Shown here: in pieces, positions 37,141 through 45,248 of the stretch
How the letters are laid out: each line of letters begins with the position of its first letter
Position numbering within the stretch: position 1 is the stretch's first letter
Source of the DNA: a virus
Taxonomy: Duplodnaviria; Caudoviricetes
IMG/VR virus record: IMGVR_UViG_3300028886_000078
Span: 17,321 to 81,320 of that record
DNA length: 64,000 nt
Direction: 5' to 3' (one strand)
The notes under the pieces: generated by a model
Told to the model about the DNA's origin: nothing
Seen by the model: only the letters and a program-made list of their open reading frames with translations
The model's database searches: none
Position numbers and translations under genes: made by a program

Positions 37141-38930
37141 ATGATTTTAACCGAAAATGGTGTTTTAAAACTTATGCAACGCATTAAAAGTTTTATAGCA
37201 TCTCAATTAAACACAAAAGCTGCATCTGTGCATACACATTCAATCTCCGAAATTGATAATCTTGCATCTCAATTGGGGGGGGGTACACTAAAAGTGAAGT
37301 AGATACCCTTTTAACTGGTAAAGCAGATACTTCACATACTCATACTAAATCACAAATAACAGATTTTCCGTCATACGGAACAACTGCAAATACTATTTGC
37401 GAGGGAAATGACTCAAGATTGAGTGATGCTAGAACCCCTACATCACACACTCATACTAAAAGTGAAATAACGGATTTTCCTAGTTTATCAACAGTAGCTA
37501 CAAGTGGAAGTTATAACGATTTGAGTAACAAACCTACAATTCCAACTGTCAATAATGCTACTCTTAAAATTCAAAAGAATGGAACTGACGTTAAGACGTT
37601 TACTGCTAATGCTAGTTCAGATGTTACTTGTAACATTACAGTTCCAACTAAAACTTCTGATTTGACTAATGATAGTGGTTTCTTAACATCACATCAAGAT
37701 TTAAGTGGATATGTTCCTAGAAGCGGTGGGAATGTAATTACTGGCACAACCTTTAATCGAACTGTTAATGATTCTTCCGTAACATTGTGCGGTGGCACAG
37801 ATTGGGACGGCGGTGCATCTATTACTTTAAGCGGTAAAGACCGAACTAATGATAACGGTGACGTTATAATCAGAACAAAAGGCAATTCAAACGTTTCAGA
37901 TTTCGTATTAAGACCTAATGGTACTGCTACATGGGGCAATAAAAATCTTGCTATGCAAGAGGATACTGTGCCTAGGTCTGGCGGTGCGGTGATAACAGGT
38001 CCAATATTCAGCAGAACAGTAAATGATAGCGAATTTAGGCTTGACGGTGGTACAACGTGGGGTCAAGGTGCATCTTTAGCACTTTCCGGCAAAGATAGAC
38101 CAGGGTCAACAGGATTAGCAACATTACATACTTCAGATGGTACAGATACAAGTGATCTTTTGCTTAGGCCGAATGGAATATTCGCACTTGTTACTAACGG
38201 TACTTCAAAATACGTTGCTATGCAAGAAGATGTTGTACCGAGAAGCGGTGGGTATGTGCTTAATGGGACTGAGTTTAGCCGACCGGATTCTTCGGCTTAT
38301 GTTACCATTTGTGGAGGTTATGGTCAGCAAGGCGGTGCATTCTTAGCTTTACACAGTAAGGGATATACTAATGCTAACTGGTTGCTAAGAACAACCAACG
38401 GCTCAAACTTAACTAAAAGCTTTTTAGGTGGGTATGATGGTACACTCGCATGGGATGGGACAGCAATTCAATACACTTCAGATAAACGCTTAAAACAACA
38501 AATAACACAAATAGATAACGCTTTATTAGATGCTTGGGAAGATGTAACCCCATGTCAATTTAAATATAACGATGCTGTTGATCAAAAAGGTGACAATGCA
38601 AGACTTCATACCGGTTATGTTGTTCAGCAAATTGATGAAGCATGTCAAAAACATAACATAGATATATCTGAATACGGTCTATATTGTCATGAAGAATACC
38701 CAGAAAGGACAGAAGAAGTCACTATTGAAAATGAAGATGGAACTACATCTAAAGAAACTAAAGTCATAGAACCAGCTAGAGAGCATTATTCATTACGATA
38801 TACCGAAACCTTAGTGGTTGAATGTGCATATTTAAGACGTGAAAATGCACGTTTGAAAGAAAGACTGCAACAGCATGATGAATATTTTTCAAATATCGAA
38901 AAGCGATTGCAATCCCTTGAAAATTCTTAA
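37141..38930 (+). CDS. Tail fibre / receptor-binding protein with C-terminal S74-type chaperone, frameshifted at a G9 tract
   Basis: ATG 37141 (AAGGA RBS) reads to G9 at 37275-37283 and then stops; the other frame continues YTKSEVD...HTH repeats, three VPRSGG repeats and SDKRLK. Confidence 0.85.
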
Positions 38931-39677: not shown

Positions 39678-40013
39678 TTAATAATTCACAACTATTGATA
39701 AAAATACTTTTTTACCAATGAATGATAATGTGAATGAATCTGAGCGAATATTGCAAGTATAAAGTTTTACTGTAGTATCAAATTCATCAGATAACAATTT
39801 TTCAAGTTTTTCAATATAGAATGCTTTTGGAGAACTGAGCATAACTTTTTGAATTTGCTTATTCAATCCATCGGTCATTTCAAATTCATCATCCATAGAC
39901 CAAAGATATGATATTCTGCCGTAATCAGCACTTCCAGTATTGTATTCTACACTTCTTACCTTTGCACTTTCGTTCATTCGTGTTCTTGAAAATCTTGGGG
40001 TTCTTCTTAACAT
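39678..40013 (-). CDS. Putative internal protein, paralog of 40749-41063
   Basis: MLRRTPRFSRTRMNE leader; high identity to paralog. Confidence 0.75.
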   Translation of the reverse strand: MLRRTPRFSRTRMNESAKVRSVEYNTGSADYGRISYLWSMDDEFEMTDGLNKQIQKVMLSSPKAFYIEKLEKLLSDEFDTTVKLYTCNIRSDSFTLSFIGKKVFLSIVVNY

Positions 40014-40156
40014 TTTTATTTTTCCTTTCTTGAATTAAATTCACCCACATGGGGGAGATGTCTGTTTATTATATATTTATATTTATACATTAAAAATAAT
40101 AAAAAATCTGTGTTCAAGAACACAGATTTTAAAAGTGGATTGAAAAATTTTGTTAA

Positions 40157-40576
40157 TTATTCATTTTCATCTTCATCATCGTAGTTATCCCTAAAATACT
40201 CAAGTGCATTTTGAGCAGATTTAATATCAATAATAAATAAATTGTCATCTAAGATTAAAAATGCATAAATCTTAGGCTTATTGAAATACTTTTTAAGAAG
40301 TGATAATGATTTTGAATTCAACTTATAATATCTATTAACATAGTCTTCCAATTCTTCTAAATCAGCAAAATTTGTGAAATGATGATAACCACATGAACCA
40401 TCACATTGATAGCACATCTCACCTTCCATCAAAGAGTCTACATTATCATAGTTGATTGAGAAAGTTTCAAAAATAGCAGCGATATACTCTAGCAATTTAT
40501 GATCTTCAGTATTGAATTCTACTACCCCATAATATTTTATCTCGCCAAAAGTTGGATAACCAGAATAATTTAACAT
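40157..40576 (-). CDS. Hypothetical protein in late-promoter cassette
   Basis: Start reassigned to ATG 40576 (AAAGGA RBS). Confidence 0.65.
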   Translation of the reverse strand: MLNYSGYPTFGEIKYYGVVEFNTEDHKLLEYIAAIFETFSINYDNVDSLMEGEMCYQCDGSCGYHHFTNFADLEELEDYVNRYYKLNSKSLSLLKKYFNKPKIYAFLILDDNLFIIDIKSAQNALEYFRDNYDDEDENE

Positions 40577-40748
40577 TTTAAATTTCCTTTTAATTGAATT
40601 CACCCCATGGGGGAGTGTTTACTTTATTGTGGTTATATTTATACTATAAAAATAATAAAAAATCTGTGTTCTTGAACACAGATTTTAAAAGTGGATTGAA
40701 ATTTTTGTTAAATATAAGAATTGCGATATGTGCTGCAGATTTTATTAT

Positions 40749-41063
40749 TTAAAAATTCACAATTATTACTAAAAATACCTTTCTGCCGGTAAAAGATAAT
40801 GCAAATGATTTTGAGCGAATGCTACACGTTCTATGTTCCACTTTAGTATCAAAAATATCTGATAACAAATCTTCAAGTTTTTCAATATAGAATGCATCTG
40901 AATAATTAAACATCATTTTTTGAATTTTATTATTCAGTTCATCGGTCATTTCAAATTCATCGGTCATAGACCAATAATATGATAATCTGCCGTAATCAGC
41001 ACGTCCAGTATATGAACTTTCGTTCATTTGTGTTCTTGAAAATCTTGGGGTTCTTCTGAGCAT
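40749..41063 (-). CDS. Putative internal protein, paralog of 39678-40013
   Basis: MLRRTPRFSRTQMNE leader; duplicated UTR. Confidence 0.75.
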   Translation of the reverse strand: MLRRTPRFSRTQMNESSYTGRADYGRLSYYWSMTDEFEMTDELNNKIQKMMFNYSDAFYIEKLEDLLSDIFDTKVEHRTCSIRSKSFALSFTGRKVFLVIIVNF

Positions 41064-41383
41064 TTTTATTTTTCCTTTCTTGAATTAAATTCACCCACAT
41101 GGGGAGATGTTTTTGATATTATATAGTATTTATATTTTATTTCAAAATCAAAACGAAAAAGCCTGTTTTCACAGGCTTTGGTCGTTCACTTACTAAGGAG
41201 TTAATTTGCTGTAATCGATGGGTGGAATAACGCATCCACCCGTGCGTGAGGAAGAAAATATGACAATGCCCTTATCGGACAATTATGATTATCAACCTTT
41301 TCAAAATTTAAAACTGTGATATAAATCACATTTTACAATATTTAATCAATTTTGTGATATTCCTTGCAAAATCTATTAGGAAC

Positions 41384-42850
41384 TGTAAATAAATAACTTC
41401 CGAAATTTAATGTATATAAATATTTATAAAAAATAATTAAATTTTTTATTGCATTATTATATATAGTATAGTATTATAACAAATATGAAAGATGAAACAA
41501 AAACATTATTATCTTGTATTATTCAAGTAACACCGTTTGATTCAATTTATGAAGAATTGGATCATGAATTGTTTTTGTCTAAAAATCTATATAATACATG
41601 TGTATATATAATACGTCAACTTATCTTTAAAAAGCGTGATTGCACAGATCCAGTTTTAAAATCTAGCATGAAAGGATATATGACTGGATTTGAGTTGTCA
41701 AAAATGCTTCAAGATGAAGATAATGTTGATTATAGAGCCTTGCCTGCTGCTGCAGCGCAGCAAGTTTGCAAGCAAGTTGATGAAGCTTTCAAGGCATATT
41801 TTGCAGCATGTAAAGAGGGTTTAACCCCAGAACTACCAAAATACTTAGATAAAGTAAAAGGTCGTAATAAACTTTCTTTTGCAAAGAATGGAATATCAGC
41901 ATCTAAATTAGAAAAGGGAATCATAAAGCTTGCTAAATCAGATATCACATTTAAACTTCCAGAATATATAGATTGTGAATCAGTTCAGCAAATTGATATT
42001 ATTAAAACAGATAATAGAACCATAAAAGTTATAATCATTTATGCAGTTCCTAAAGTTGAAATGAAAAAGAACAACAATAGAATTTTAGGAATTGATGTAG
42101 GTGTTAATAATTTGATGGCAGTAGTATCAAATACTAATGATTTTAAGCCAATAATTTATGATGGAAGACCAATTAAGGAGATCAACCAGTTTTGTAATAA
42201 ATATGTTGCTAAATATAAAAGTTTATCTAAAAATGTAATAACTGAACGTATATGTTCAATTTATAGAAATCGAGAAAACAAAATCGATGATTGTTTTCAT
42301 AAAATAGTCAACGATTTGATTAATCAAGCAGTTTCTAACGATTTTAGTGTTATCGTTATCGGTAAAAATAAAGGTTGGAAACAAGAGGTCAAACTTGGTG
42401 ATCAAAACAATCAAAATTTTGTTTGTATACCTCATAATCTGTTAATCAAGATGATTAAGTATAAAGCCGCATTATATGGTATTACGGTTATAGAAACTGA
42501 GGAATCTTATACTTCTATATGCTCTTTCTTTGATAATGAATTTCCGTGTTATCACGAAAATTATAAAGGAGAAAGAGTGAAAAGAGGATTGTTTAAGAGT
42601 TCTTTAGGGTTTATAAATGCCGATTTGAATGCTGCTTTAAACATAATCAGAAAAGTATTTCCAGAGTTTAGCTGTGAAACAGCTAATTTGAGTATAAATC
42701 ATTTTAAAAATGTATTAAAGGTAAGCCCTAAGATGCTGTGTAACAGCAATCATCGGGTCTAGTGGGGTCGGGCGATTCCTTCAATTTTAAAGCCTTAAAC
42801 AAGTTTTAAAGTTGTAAATGTAGATAAATTTCGGAAGTTATTTATTTACA
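41384..42850 (+). mobile_element. 1467-bp tnpB-only element bounded by perfect 26-bp terminal inverted repeats
   Basis: TGTAAATAAATAACTTCCGAAATTTA (41384-41409) and its exact reverse complement (42825-42850). Confidence 0.8.
41485..42762 (+). CDS. tnpB: TnpB-family RNA-guided nuclease
   Basis: SKNLYN, RuvC-I GIDVGVNN, IGKNKGWKQ, EESYTS, RVKRGLF, RuvC-III NADLNAALNI. Confidence 0.92.
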   Translation: MKDETKTLLSCIIQVTPFDSIYEELDHELFLSKNLYNTCVYIIRQLIFKKRDCTDPVLKSSMKGYMTGFELSKMLQDEDNVDYRALPAAAAQQVCKQVDEAFKAYFAACKEGLTPELPKYLDKVKGRNKLSFAKNGISASKLEKGIIKLAKSDITFKLPEYIDCESVQQIDIIKTDNRTIKVIIIYAVPKVEMKKNNNRILGIDVGVNNLMAVVSNTNDFKPIIYDGRPIKEINQFCNKYVAKYKSLSKNVITERICSIYRNRENKIDDCFHKIVNDLINQAVSNDFSVIVIGKNKGWKQEVKLGDQNNQNFVCIPHNLLIKMIKYKAALYGITVIETEESYTSICSFFDNEFPCYHENYKGERVKRGLFKSSLGFINADLNAALNIIRKVFPEFSCETANLSINHFKNVLKVSPKMLCNSNHRV

Positions 42851-43314
42851 ATGCCTTATCATGTCTTGATTTCACTTGAAATAGGTGATAAATTCACAAA
42901 AACTGGAAAAGGAATTTAGAAAATGAGTAAATTATCGCAAGCGAAAACAGATTTGAATTTTTTGAAAAAGAAAATTGATGAGATTTCAGATGTTGTAAAC
43001 AGACCTTTGCATAACAGTGTTTTTGATGAGTATTCTGAGCGTGATTTAGAAGCCTTGAAACGATGTTATACCTATTGCGAAACCTATATTAAGCTTTTGG
43101 AAATCAAAAAACTAAGGAAGGAAGAAAATGCTGAGAGAGTTGAAAACCCATAATCCAAAATATGCAGATCGTTTGATTGAATATTATAGATTAAAACATA
43201 AAAACCTTTCTGAACAGACTGCAATTGATGAACTCGAATTCATGTTTGAAAAATCATTTGATTTTTTAAATAATTATATGATAATGATAACTGGCAAACT
43301 TTTGGAGTCTTGGA

Positions 43315-43548
43315 ATGAAACTTGATAAAAGAATTTCAAAACAACCGTTTCACTGTTTTGACAGTAATGATGCATCTTGTTTTCTTGGGGAATGGGGATA
43401 TTTTTCAAATTCCTTAGAAAATTATAGCGATTTGTCAAAGACCGTCAAAAGTGTTCTTGATGAAATTGACTTATGTTCTGATAAGCCGTTTAAAACTAAA
43501 GTATCACATAAATATAGATTTTTTGTTCCGGCAACATTTTTGGAGTAA
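43315..43548 (+). CDS. KLDKRI-family (N-domain only)
   Basis: MKLDKRI..PFHCFD..GYFSN...FFVP. Confidence 0.8.
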   Translation: MKLDKRISKQPFHCFDSNDASCFLGEWGYFSNSLENYSDLSKTVKSVLDEIDLCSDKPFKTKVSHKYRFFVPATFLE

Positions 43549-43550
43549 AT

Positions 43551-44039
43551 ATGTTAGAACTTGATAAAAGAATAATTAGCAATGCACGCCCTTATGACTG
43601 TTTTTCAAATGCTGAAGAAGTTTCACAGTACTCAAAAGGTTGGTTTACTAATTTTTTAGAAGATTTTACGAACCTTGATAATGATACCATTATATTTGAT
43701 ACATTAACGGAAGTTAAAAATTCAAATTATCCGTTTATGGCTGAAAAAGGATTTTATAAATTTTTTCTACCTGAATGTATGGCTAAAGTACAAAAAAAAT
43801 TTAGAGCATATGATTCCGTAAAAGAATTACCGTTTACGGTAGGTGATGTATTGTTTATAAAAGACAAAGAAAGTCCGACTATCAATAAATGCATTTGTTC
43901 GAATATAACATGTATAAATGACAGCATATCACTTATCACATTAGGAACAACTGCATACTCTGTACAGGAACTTTTTGAAAATTACAGATGGAAATTTACT
44001 GAAACCGGTGACTGGAAACCTTTTGGAGAAAAAGAGTGA
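43551..44039 (+). CDS. KLDKRI/PFGVEE-family two-domain protein
   Basis: LDKRI...ELFENYRW..WKPFGEKE. Confidence 0.8.
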   Translation: MLELDKRIISNARPYDCFSNAEEVSQYSKGWFTNFLEDFTNLDNDTIIFDTLTEVKNSNYPFMAEKGFYKFFLPECMAKVQKKFRAYDSVKELPFTVGDVLFIKDKESPTINKCICSNITCINDSISLITLGTTAYSVQELFENYRWKFTETGDWKPFGEKE

Positions 44040-44581
44040 AATTAGATAAACATATTAAAGATTTTAAGATTTTGACCCCTTTTAGTACAATGAAAGAGAT
44101 TGAACCGTATATCGGCAAAGAATGTTATTTTGCAGATCACTTAGCAGATTTTAAAAGTCTTGAACAATACTGCAAAAAAGGTATTCTTGACAGATGCATT
44201 TTCGGTGATTATAATGAGAATAGATATCCGTTCAGGATCAATGATGGTACTGAAGATGCAGATGATTTCGGGTTTTGTCTGCCGTGCGATTTCATAAAAG
44301 AAGTTCCTGAAGAAAAACCATTAAAATACAGACCATATACCGTTAAAGAATTTAAGAAACAATTTCAAATCGGTGATGTAATTCTATATAGATTTATCAA
44401 CGATGAATCCGATGCCTTACAATATAGATTTTTGTATCTTGGGGATAAAACACTTGAAGATAACTTCATTGTATATTTTGGAACTGAATCTTATACATTA
44501 TCAAAACTGTTTAACCGTTTTGAATGGTTTGATAAAATAACCGATAGCTGGAAACCTTTCGGAGAAGTAGATGGAAAGTAA
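44036..44581 (+). CDS. KLDKRI/PFGVEE-family two-domain protein
   Basis: KLDKHI...YRPY...WKPFGEV. Confidence 0.8.
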   Translation: MKLDKHIKDFKILTPFSTMKEIEPYIGKECYFADHLADFKSLEQYCKKGILDRCIFGDYNENRYPFRINDGTEDADDFGFCLPCDFIKEVPEEKPLKYRPYTVKEFKKQFQIGDVILYRFINDESDALQYRFLYLGDKTLEDNFIVYFGTESYTLSKLFNRFEWFDKITDSWKPFGEVDGK

Positions 44582-44655
44582 GTTAGAACAGAAAGTAAAA
44601 ATTTTCAATGATGTTCATGCATATAACTATGTTGAAATCACAGAAGATGGAAAAA

Positions 44656-44718
44656 TGTGATGTACTTAACATTTTTAAAATAATTATATTGACTTTTTAA
44701 ATAATAAAAAGTTATTAT
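44656..44718 (+). promoter_or_regulatory. sigma70 promoter with CRP-like box centred at -61.5
   Basis: AAATGTGATGTACTTAACATTT; TTGACT(44689)-N18-TATTAT. Confidence 0.7.
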
Positions 44719-44747
44719 TAAACACATATTTTAAATGAGGTTGAAAA

Positions 44748-45248
44748 ATGATTGAATATGATAAGAGGATTAAAGATCCAAGTAAAATTTTAACACCGTT
44801 TTCATCAAGTATGGAAGATTATTATGGAAAAGAATGCTATTGCACAGATAATTTATATGACTTCCGGGATCTCAAACTCTGCATTGTAGATACATTAGTT
44901 GATAGACCAATATATAATAAGGAATATCAGTTCGCAACCGAAAATGGTCGTTTTAAATACTGCTTACCTAGTGAATTTGTGGAAAAACCAATTAAAAAAC
45001 AGTTAAGACCTTTTAAAACTGCTAAAGAATTACCGTTCACGGTAGGTGATAAAGTTTATTTTAAAGGAAAAGGTTTGAAAACTTACGTATATACAATTGT
45101 AACTGCATTGAATTTCAATTCTAACGGCACATTAACAGGTATTAATTTCGGATGTTCAGAGATAATTGATACAGAACATTTGTTTAATAATTGCGAGTGG
45201 AAATTCGGACTTGATAGCGAATGGCGTCCGTTTGGAGTTGAAGAATGA
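44748..45248 (+). CDS. KLDKRI/PFGVEE-family two-domain protein
   Basis: YDKRI...LRPF...WRPFGVEE. Confidence 0.8.
   Translation: MIEYDKRIKDPSKILTPFSSSMEDYYGKECYCTDNLYDFRDLKLCIVDTLVDRPIYNKEYQFATENGRFKYCLPSEFVEKPIKKQLRPFKTAKELPFTVGDKVYFKGKGLKTYVYTIVTALNFNSNGTLTGINFGCSEIIDTEHLFNNCEWKFGLDSEWRPFGVEE

Follow-up and report, generated by a model that had tools for sequence, protein, structure and literature searches.

Results

A lone tnpB gene between inverted repeats in a cattle-rumen phage

The window analysed here is a 64,000-nt stretch (G000:C1:17321-81320) of an 81-kb virus record of about 30% GC, IMG/VR record IMGVR_UViG_3300028886_000078 (G000 below). It carries a mobile unit of 1477 bp, at window positions 41379-42855, in which a single gene for the RNA-guided nuclease TnpB lies between terminal inverted repeats (TIRs) and is flanked by a 3-bp target-site duplication. 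Occupied and empty alleles coexist among related myovirus-like rumen phages, in which the element is mobile now or was so recently. We consider it probably a non-autonomous TIR element moved in trans by a DDE transposase, with a TnpB that probably cuts empty alleles.

The ends were defined by a perfect inverted repeat of 26 nt, at 41384-41409 and, as the exact reverse complement, at 42825-42850. At a tolerance of up to 3 mismatches, the 26-mer matched twice in the 64-kb window and not at all in each of 100 dinucleotide-preserving shuffles. The sole long open reading frame (ORF) between the two 26-mers is tnpB (41485-42762, plus strand, 425 aa), which bears out an earlier note on this DNA that had proposed a non-autonomous, TIR-bounded element carrying tnpB only. 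That note had taken the bare 26-mer for the whole repeat, with GGAAC and ATGCC outside it. Both pentamers are element sequence, being present with other copies at new sites and missing from the empty allele; the 26-mer is the core of 31-nt TIRs (GGAAC-TGT...ACA-ATGCC) with 2 mismatches, both in the outer 5 nt. The note had also reported no obvious target-site duplication, because it placed the ends 5 nt too far in. With the ends at 41379 and 42855, a 3-bp duplication, TTA, adjoins the element on both sides (Table 1).

The duplication was revealed by an empty allele in bovine-gut DNA run X3, which belongs to a study other than the window's probable source, X1. A contig of 339 nt (depth 36.4) from this run covers 41150-41375 and then 42856-42969, joining 41375 to 42856 and skipping 1480 nt, with 114 nt on the shorter side of the joint; 3 letters fit either side of it. 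The empty allele thus reads ...TCTA-TTA-TCATG..., with a single TTA, and the occupied one ...TCTA-TTA-[GGAAC...ATGCC]-TTA-TCATG....

Seven copies at six sites share the same ends

Exact searches for copies used the 26-mer in IMG/VR and its 20-nt core in the genomes of GTDB and the metagenomes of JGI. In contigs of related rumen phages they yielded seven full copies, bounded by the identical 26-mer and inserted at six different sites: the window copy and those in G001, G002, G004, G003a, ERZ842401.1565 (ERZ below) and Ga0256405_10005378. G002 and G004 occupy one common site, with 100% identical flanks. The copy in Ga0256405_10005378 is 98.5% identical to that of the window, and the G001 copy (also L002) 96% identical, its homology to the window being limited to about 41371-42856 and including GGAAC and ATGCC. 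Partial copies were found in L008, cut by the contig end, and in L033, with a truncated right end; L030 gave one unrelated match. Further copies with the same ends and empty alleles, both of which the earlier note had proposed to look for, were thus obtained, the empty alleles in X3 for the window site and in G002/G004 for the G001 site.

Read in the orientation of tnpB, the flanks are TTA/TTA in the window and TAA/TAA in each of G001, G002/G004 and Ga0256405_10005378, so that identical 3-nt flanks adjoin canonical ends at four of the six sites (TTA once, TAA three times). The G001 insertion is missing in G002/G004, where the site reads TATATAAAAATGGG and fits a single TAA except for one A in a homopolymer. 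When the element and one TAA were removed from Ga0256405_10005378, 53 and 129 open codons ran together across the joint, which suggests that this insertion interrupted a gene of which no intact homologue was at hand. Among the five virus records G000-G004, the insertions in the window, in G003a and in Ga0256405_10005378 had no homologous empty site. X3 and X15 contributed, from loose contig ends, three right flanks of TTA, one of CAA and one left flank of TAA; the right flanks read beyond those of the four clean sites were TTA, TAA, CAA, CTA and TAC.

These triplets bear on the possibility of an IS200/IS605 (IS1341-like) element, which a Y1 HUH transposase TnpA would move in trans as single-stranded DNA and insert 3' of TWA, the right-hand TWA then being the element's own end. 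The empty allele alone cannot tell a duplication from a target plus an element end, and each repeat contains a small palindrome (TAAAT...ATTTA). An intact Y1 TnpA gene also lies in the same virus record, outside the window (G000:388-792, 134 aa, PF01797 at 1e-33), beside an IscB-like gene. That unit, however, has its own GC-rich hairpins (CCCCAC...GTGGGG), unlike the 26-mer repeat, and the ends of the tnpB element are inverted rather than in the same orientation. Moreover, the right triplet co-varies with the left flank at five of six sites (TTA/TTA, TAA/TAA three times, CTA/CTA), which an inherited element end would not do. We regard this origin as highly improbable.

The ends are conserved far beyond the gene that they enclose. 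Both 31-nt ends are 31/31 identical to those of the window in G001, Ga0256405_10005378, ERZ and G002; the left end of G003a matches at 28/31, and the right end at 31/31 in all five other full copies compared. The copies form three subfamilies, whose TnpB proteins are 54-55% (G002, G003a) and 67% (ERZ) identical to that of the window. Coding-sequence identity to the window is 62-74% in ERZ, G002 and G003a (62-66% in G002/G003a), and the 75-nt leader is 88-91% identical in G002/G003a. An identity of 31/31 between subfamilies, despite 62-74% in the coding sequence, points to selection on the ends. A promoter scan was uninformative (15 sites against 12.1 +/- 3.7 in shuffles).

Several remnants were also observed. 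L023, L024, L026 and L032 are deletion remnants at one conserved phage site (...accggtcataggaaatta), consisting of the left end, the leader and part of the omega region, without tnpB; L008 and G000:1-143 were grouped with them at the same accggtcataggaaatta site. Two of the remnant contigs are binned in Saccharibacteria and Malacoplasma metagenome-assembled genomes, probably as phage contamination. Another remnant, at G002:C1:30300-30640 (also G004:24183-24270), consists of the leader followed by ~130 nt from the start of a tnpB of G002 type; it has no left repeat and ends at a TTAGGAACTGT motif resembling a left junction. The right tip of the element (42848-42855, ...ACAATGCC; L027 junction) carries an outward-facing ATG. 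In the window this ATG opens a frame of only 22 codons; in Ga0256405_10005378 it continues in frame into that half of the interrupted ORF which lies downstream.

TnpB has a rearranged RuvC-II site

The gene product matches the Pfam families OrfB_IS605 (1e-13; 52 bits, cut-off 30.5) and Cas12f1-like_TNB (2e-10; 41.1 bits, cut-off 26.3) as well as PHROG 506 (3.4e-39), and each of the six full copies read encodes TnpB in an intact ORF of 424-435 aa. In a four-sequence alignment (A3), D204 (GIDVG), E340 ((E/N)ESYTS) and D380 (NADLN) are invariant and E339 is variable. D204 and D380 are the Asp residues of RuvC-I and RuvC-III, and the canonical RuvC D-E-D triad is broken by G293, which stands at the position of the RuvC-II Glu. 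The only solved relatives reached by sequence were two Cas12f chains (E ~7e-4). In one of them, 9nzo_B, G293 (IGKN) aligns with the Glu of IQMERL, which we take to be the RuvC-II catalytic residue. The earlier note had described kept RuvC-I and RuvC-III aspartates, IGKN at the RuvC-II Glu and a possible substitute Glu in EESYTS; this holds, with Glu340, not Glu339, as the invariant residue and the candidate alternative catalytic Glu. The zinc finger is reduced from the usual CxxC...CxxC to C346, C355 and H357.

A RuvC-II rearrangement of this kind, in which Glu is replaced by Gly and a Glu from the next strand compensates, is described in Altae-Tran 2023 (PMC10691335), where some of the rearranged branches are virus-specific. 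By its residues, the present TnpB matches this class. Relatives among phage records are distant: none of 50,697 phage records was matched by 40000-44500 in megablast, and a protein search gave relatives of at most 43% identity among the 25 records listed of 44, with one unlisted record in the 60-80% band.

The right repeat is part of a predicted omega-RNA hairpin

The region 42640-42855, which overlaps the 3' end of tnpB, folds at -50 kcal/mol (z = -2.87, 200 shuffles). A consensus fold with ERZ and L054 contains 45 pairs, 6 of them with compensatory changes, which is modest evidence from 3 sequences. The last helix is formed by 42819-42829 and 42840-42850, with TTCGGAAGTT as its loop, so that the right repeat would supply most of the terminal hairpin; this stem is kept in L054 in a sequence of its own, with a G-U to G-C change. 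The earlier proposal that the right TIR forms the end of the omega-RNA scaffold agrees with this predicted fold. Identity over the non-coding part, 42763-42824, amounts to 98-100% for near copies, 90% for ERZ and 44% for G002/G003a, whose scaffold is shorter than the window's. No Rfam family was found in 41000-43300 at E up to 1. Contigs from RNA libraries X15 and X16 cover the element; the libraries may contain DNA, so these contigs show neither transcription nor RNA ends.

The guide is predicted to start at 42856, because the sequence common to the copies stops after ATGCC. The start at 42851 given previously would place ATGCC, which is element sequence, in the guide. Guides of studied TnpBs are ~16-20 nt long. 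The bases 5' of the duplication are TCTA, TATA, TTTA, TCTA and ATTA at five sites and ATAA, ACGA and TGTA at three, which suggests a TA-ending, as yet unproven, target-adjacent motif (TAM).

Table 1 Features of the element and its flanks in the window
Feature	Position	Strand	Basis
Left copy of the target-site duplication (TTA)	41376-41378	none	X3 empty-allele contig
Left 31-nt terminal inverted repeat; outer GGAAC imperfect, 41384-41409 perfect 26-mer	41379-41409	+	sequence, copy comparison
Leader from left end to tnpB start; presumed promoter region	41410-41484	+	conservation; promoter inferred only
tnpB, 425 aa	41485-42762	+	Pfam, PHROG 506, alignment A3, Cas12f alignment
Predicted omega-RNA scaffold, overlapping tnpB 3' end and ending at right element end	42640-42855	+	fold, consensus pairs
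Predicted terminal hairpin of omega-RNA, 11-bp stem (42819-42829/42840-42850), loop TTCGGAAGTT	42819-42850	+	fold, covariation
Right 31-nt terminal inverted repeat; perfect 26-mer 42825-42850 plus outer ATGCC	42825-42855	-	sequence, copy comparison
Right copy of the target-site duplication (TTA)	42856-42858	none	X3 empty-allele contig
Predicted guide part of omega-RNA, read-through into flank, assumed ~16-20 nt	42856-42875	+	inference

Related TnpBs are found in DDE-type transposons

Relatives were collected by a profile scan of IMG/VR (79 loci), and a maximum-likelihood tree was built from 28 TnpBs of at least 350 aa, shorter or broken ones being excluded. The 26-mer family and L054 form one clade (100/100) with L059 and L064 as sister (86/82), and the L072 type falls in the other half of the tree. 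L054:3501-4751 (IMGVR_UViG_3300028048_000060) encodes an intact TnpB of 416 aa, nested in the 26-mer family at 66% identity. It lies between endonuclease-VII-like and thymidylate-kinase-like genes, has no left repeat and has a homologous but diverged right-end hairpin, and may be an immobilised copy.

Both the L064 and the L072 types have inverted ends of ~21-28 nt starting GGT(A/G)A. The L072 type is a large family of solo elements (~1327 bp, ~38% protein identity) with ~21-nt ends GGTAACTATATACCAG. Perfect duplications of 8-9 bp were found at 9 of its 16 distinct sites, and 7 of 8 bases agree at another; TAA precedes 8 of the 9 duplications. L136:5708-8778 is a 3071-bp transposon with L072-type ends, an 8-bp duplication (TTTTCATA) and an IS1595-family transposase (L136:7756-8670, PF12762 at 1.1e-48). 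The L064 type (L064, L194-L273) has 28-nt ends, GGT(A/G)ATTATATAC, whose motif occurs in at least 114 IMG/VR stretches, and 8-bp duplications in 2 of 11 full-size rows. L233:179-3331 is a 3153-bp L064-type version with an IS1595-type transposase and an 8-bp duplication. Four IS1595-type elements have ends of the form GG(N)A(A/C)(C/T)TATATAC, against GGAACTGTAAAT in the window element. These results indicate that TnpB recurs in DDE-type inverted-end transposons of gut phages, and that the nearest TIR-bearing kin of the element are of that kind.

The L072-type loci are L072-L132 and L133-L183 in IMG/VR, and TIR-only mini elements of 38 bp and 79 bp were seen in L136, L174, L145, L149 and L182.

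The same broad TnpB clade also includes IS607-type units, with TnpBs behind a TnpA that has MerR-type helix-turn-helix (HTH) and resolvase domains (L003, L065, L068, L107, L113, L114 and L125). L065, L068 and L107 have 13-15-nt inverted repeats near both ends, so the premise of the earlier note that the usual TnpB carriers lack TIRs was too strong. Beyond the right inverted repeat of the IS607-type L065, L068, L107, L116 and L095 stands (G/A)TAAC-T(G/A)T, for example ATAACTGTAAGTAAAG in L065, a motif that resembles the left tip of the TIR families. The window element might be an IS607-type element that lost its serine tnpA, moved by a serine TnpA in trans through a 2-nt crossover, with the flank repeat as the crossover dinucleotide. 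Inverted repeats near the ends and GG tips are described for IS607 (Chen 2018, PMC6188088), and the left end of the element starts with GG.

Its right tip, however, is CC and not GG in direct orientation. The 3-nt flank repeat differs between the window (TTA) and the 98.5% identical copy in Ga0256405_10005378 (TAA), whereas the crossover of a serine enzyme must not vary in one lineage. Among the five phage records, the Resolvase family had 0 hits and no IS607 TnpA emerged from tblastn with 4 TnpA queries, and the nearest TIR-bearing relatives ride DDE transposons. We consider an IS607 origin improbable. Under a serine or an HUH mechanism, chance or a target preference would also have to account for the agreement of the third flank base at all clean sites, and the crossover or end triplet would have to change between 98.5% identical copies.

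A third possibility dispenses with a dedicated transposase and lets the element spread by recombination or homing between co-infecting phages, the repeats serving RNA pairing or inversion. Homing of free-standing nuclease genes in phages is well known (PMC13565253), and the flanks of the sister families are often scrambled: many L064-type copies have exchanged flanks, and L200 and L204 carry the element at the same site in opposite orientations. Against this stand the six unrelated sites with sharp common boundaries and short duplications. The presumed promoter region also lies inward of the left repeat, so that the mRNA need not contain the repeat. No inverted copy of the 26-mer family was seen, which likewise speaks against the invertible cassette considered in the earlier note. 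Spread with no dedicated transposase is quite improbable, between the two preceding origins in our estimate.

The transposase was sought in phages and in collections of ends

Movement by a DDE transposase in trans, by cut-and-paste or copy-paste, accounts for the inverted ends, for a duplication that is short, for boundaries that are sharp and common to the copies, and for the kinship; several observations weigh against it. There is no gene inside the element able to move it, and an autonomous DDE or recombinase partner with the same ends, as the earlier note had envisaged, was not found. The ends were scanned for with the 26-mer and a 19-letter pattern in IMG/VR and with a 20-mer in GTDB genomes and JGI metagenomes. 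These collections are incomplete, and in them no transposase with 26-mer ends was found; by exact scans, the ends occurred only on TnpB elements and remnants, plus the one unrelated match. The five phage records (G000-G004), which are 24-59% complete, had no hit to DDE_Tnp_1, DDE_Tnp_1_2, DDE_Tnp_4, DDE_3 or rve (0/5 each), the IS5/Harbinger-class families PF01609, PF13586 and PF13359 being among these. These phages contain a single IS1595-type gene, at G003:36281-37318. Two stops disrupt it, its only inverted repeat is 20 nt long (80%) and starts TGTAATT, and its boundaries could not be fixed.

The flanks add further difficulties. Two of the six sites are aberrant and fall outside the simple 3-bp pattern. 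In G003a, GCGCAT replaces GGAAC at the left tip, and an 8-nt direct repeat (CTAGCGCA), preceded by TAA, overlaps that tip; in ERZ, the left junction reads TAT-TG-GGAAC and the right one ATGCC-TAC-TGGGATC. Both sites matter because the sister families make 8-bp duplications, and the IS1595-type relatives duplicate 8 bp, not 3 bp. TAA at three of the four clean sites may also reflect a 2-nt crossover combined with target preference, and the empty allele may simply never have been occupied. TnpB cleavage, the ends of the omega-RNA, the TAM and homing are all predictions.

Two other ways of producing the flanks were tried and rejected. A flap-retention model, in which an 8-bp stagger becomes '3 bp + GGAAC', was worked by hand and predicts a right junction other than the one seen. 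A TA duplication of the IS630 type would require two extra indels between 98.5% identical copies and is less parsimonious.

Phage context

The phage record encodes baseplate, portal, scaffold and tail-fibre proteins, and the window stretch is present in bovine and sheep gut runs. The element sits in the divergent gap between two arrays of paralogous small genes, at 39678-41063 (MLRRTPRFSRT..., minus strand) and 43315-45248 (M.LDKRI..., plus strand). Tandem repeat arrays of ~130 bp occur in all five phage records (e.g. G003:17733-18368 and 37642-38366) and in L033 and L027, often beside the IS1595-type pseudogene or a TnpB element. A second OMEGA-type element, G000:C1:388-2057 (L191), lies about 15 kb ahead of the window and combines the Y1 TnpA with an IscB-like protein of 436 aa (PLMP-type N-terminus, HNH motif); its GC-rich hairpins stand on both sides, and it appears to interrupt a gene starting MSVLKSQRKES.

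Discussion

The non-autonomous TIR element with tnpB proposed in the earlier note is supported; its missing duplication, its guide start and its invertible cassette are not. In the transposition that we favour, the host or another element would supply a DDE-type transposase in trans, which would bind both identical ends, cut and paste the element with its GG...CC tips, and duplicate a T(A/T)A target as 3 bp. TnpB with its omega-RNA, the last hairpin of which would be the right repeat and the guide of which would come from the right flank (TTATCATG...), would then cut the uninterrupted site beside a short TA-ending motif. Repair from an occupied genome in a co-infected cell would restore or spread the element, as a homing drive. 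The homing role is proposed because of work on IS605 and IS607 elements cited in PMC13565253, together with the coexisting occupied and empty alleles. As to the family of the transposase, the tips resemble IS1595-type ends, and the 3-bp TWA duplication appears to fit IS5 (ISL2/IS1031) or Harbinger better.

More tentatively, and as an idea that may well prove wrong, TnpB/omega-RNA modules may have been captured repeatedly by DDE transposons in gut and rumen phages. The right end, bound by the transposase, would double as the last guide-RNA hairpin, and the elements would move by a borrowed transposase and serve as RNA-guided homing drives between co-infecting phages. Such a history would explain identical ends on nucleases that are only 54-67% identical. 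It would also account for the motif 5' of the duplications (TAA at 8 of 9 L072-type sites, TA before TWA here) and for an IS1595-type partnership in two separate TnpB clades.

The element is a clean natural case of a target-duplicating transposon that carries an RNA-guided nuclease, and it is known from occupied as well as empty alleles. One 26-nt sequence is apparently constrained twice, as transposon end and as guide-RNA hairpin, which is directly testable. The nuclease is compact (425 aa), RuvC-II-rearranged and set within defined element boundaries, so that a guide start and a candidate TAM can be stated, and phage co-infection provides a setting for measuring a TnpB drive.

Elements of this kind are known and still rare, with DDE-linked and solo TnpBs between inverted ends already in print (Altae-Tran 2023, PMC10691335). 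According to the branch descriptions in that paper, inverted terminal repeats occur in all six DDE-associated TnpB branches, and solo TnpBs share the same ends. The review PMC13565253, citing Altae-Tran 2023, names ISL2, IS630 and IS1031 transposases as those with which TnpB has been seen inside inverted ends, and it rates the association of OMEGA systems with DDE transposases as relatively low. In the open literature that we searched, we found neither a paper linking TnpB to IS1595 nor one on the element itself, and the supplements of PMC10691335 may already include the family. What the family adds is a phage setting, a 3-bp duplication with its empty allele, identical ends on diverged nucleases, and a repeat that doubles as a predicted guide-RNA hairpin.

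Compared by branch description only, the element resembles the DDE-associated TnpBs of PMC10691335 in its inverted ends and in the short distance from the 3' end of tnpB to the transposon end (at most 250 bp there; here the stop lies 93 nt from the right end). With the solo members it shares transposase-free copies presumed to be moved in trans, and a rearranged catalytic site can also occur in these systems. It differs from them in residing on rumen-phage replicons and in that no partner transposase was found in the records and collections searched.

The IS1595 family makes 8-bp target duplications, and IS5 (ISL2/IS1031) and PIF/Harbinger elements have inverted ends and a 3-bp TNA/TWA duplication. 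Like the IS1595-type, L072 and L064 elements, the window element has GG...CC tips, its first dozen bases being GGAACTGTAAAT against GG(T/G)AACTATATAC; like the L072 and L064 types, it is a unit of one tnpB, ~1.3-1.5 kb long, with the omega region at the right end. It departs from all of these in its 3-bp duplication at four of six sites, against their 8-9 bp, and from IS1595 elements in that no intact IS1595 transposase was found with 26-mer ends. Set beside IS5 and Harbinger by the general properties of those families rather than by end sequences, it agrees in the 3-bp TWA duplication and the inverted ends and differs in that no DDE_Tnp_1- or DDE_Tnp_4-class transposase occurs in the five phage records. 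With IS607 and IS200/IS605 (IS1341) it shares the nuclease family and an omega-RNA at the right end that would read into the flank; unlike those elements, which make no target duplication and have ends that are unlike each other or form hairpins, it has 31-nt inverted repeats and a 3-bp duplication.

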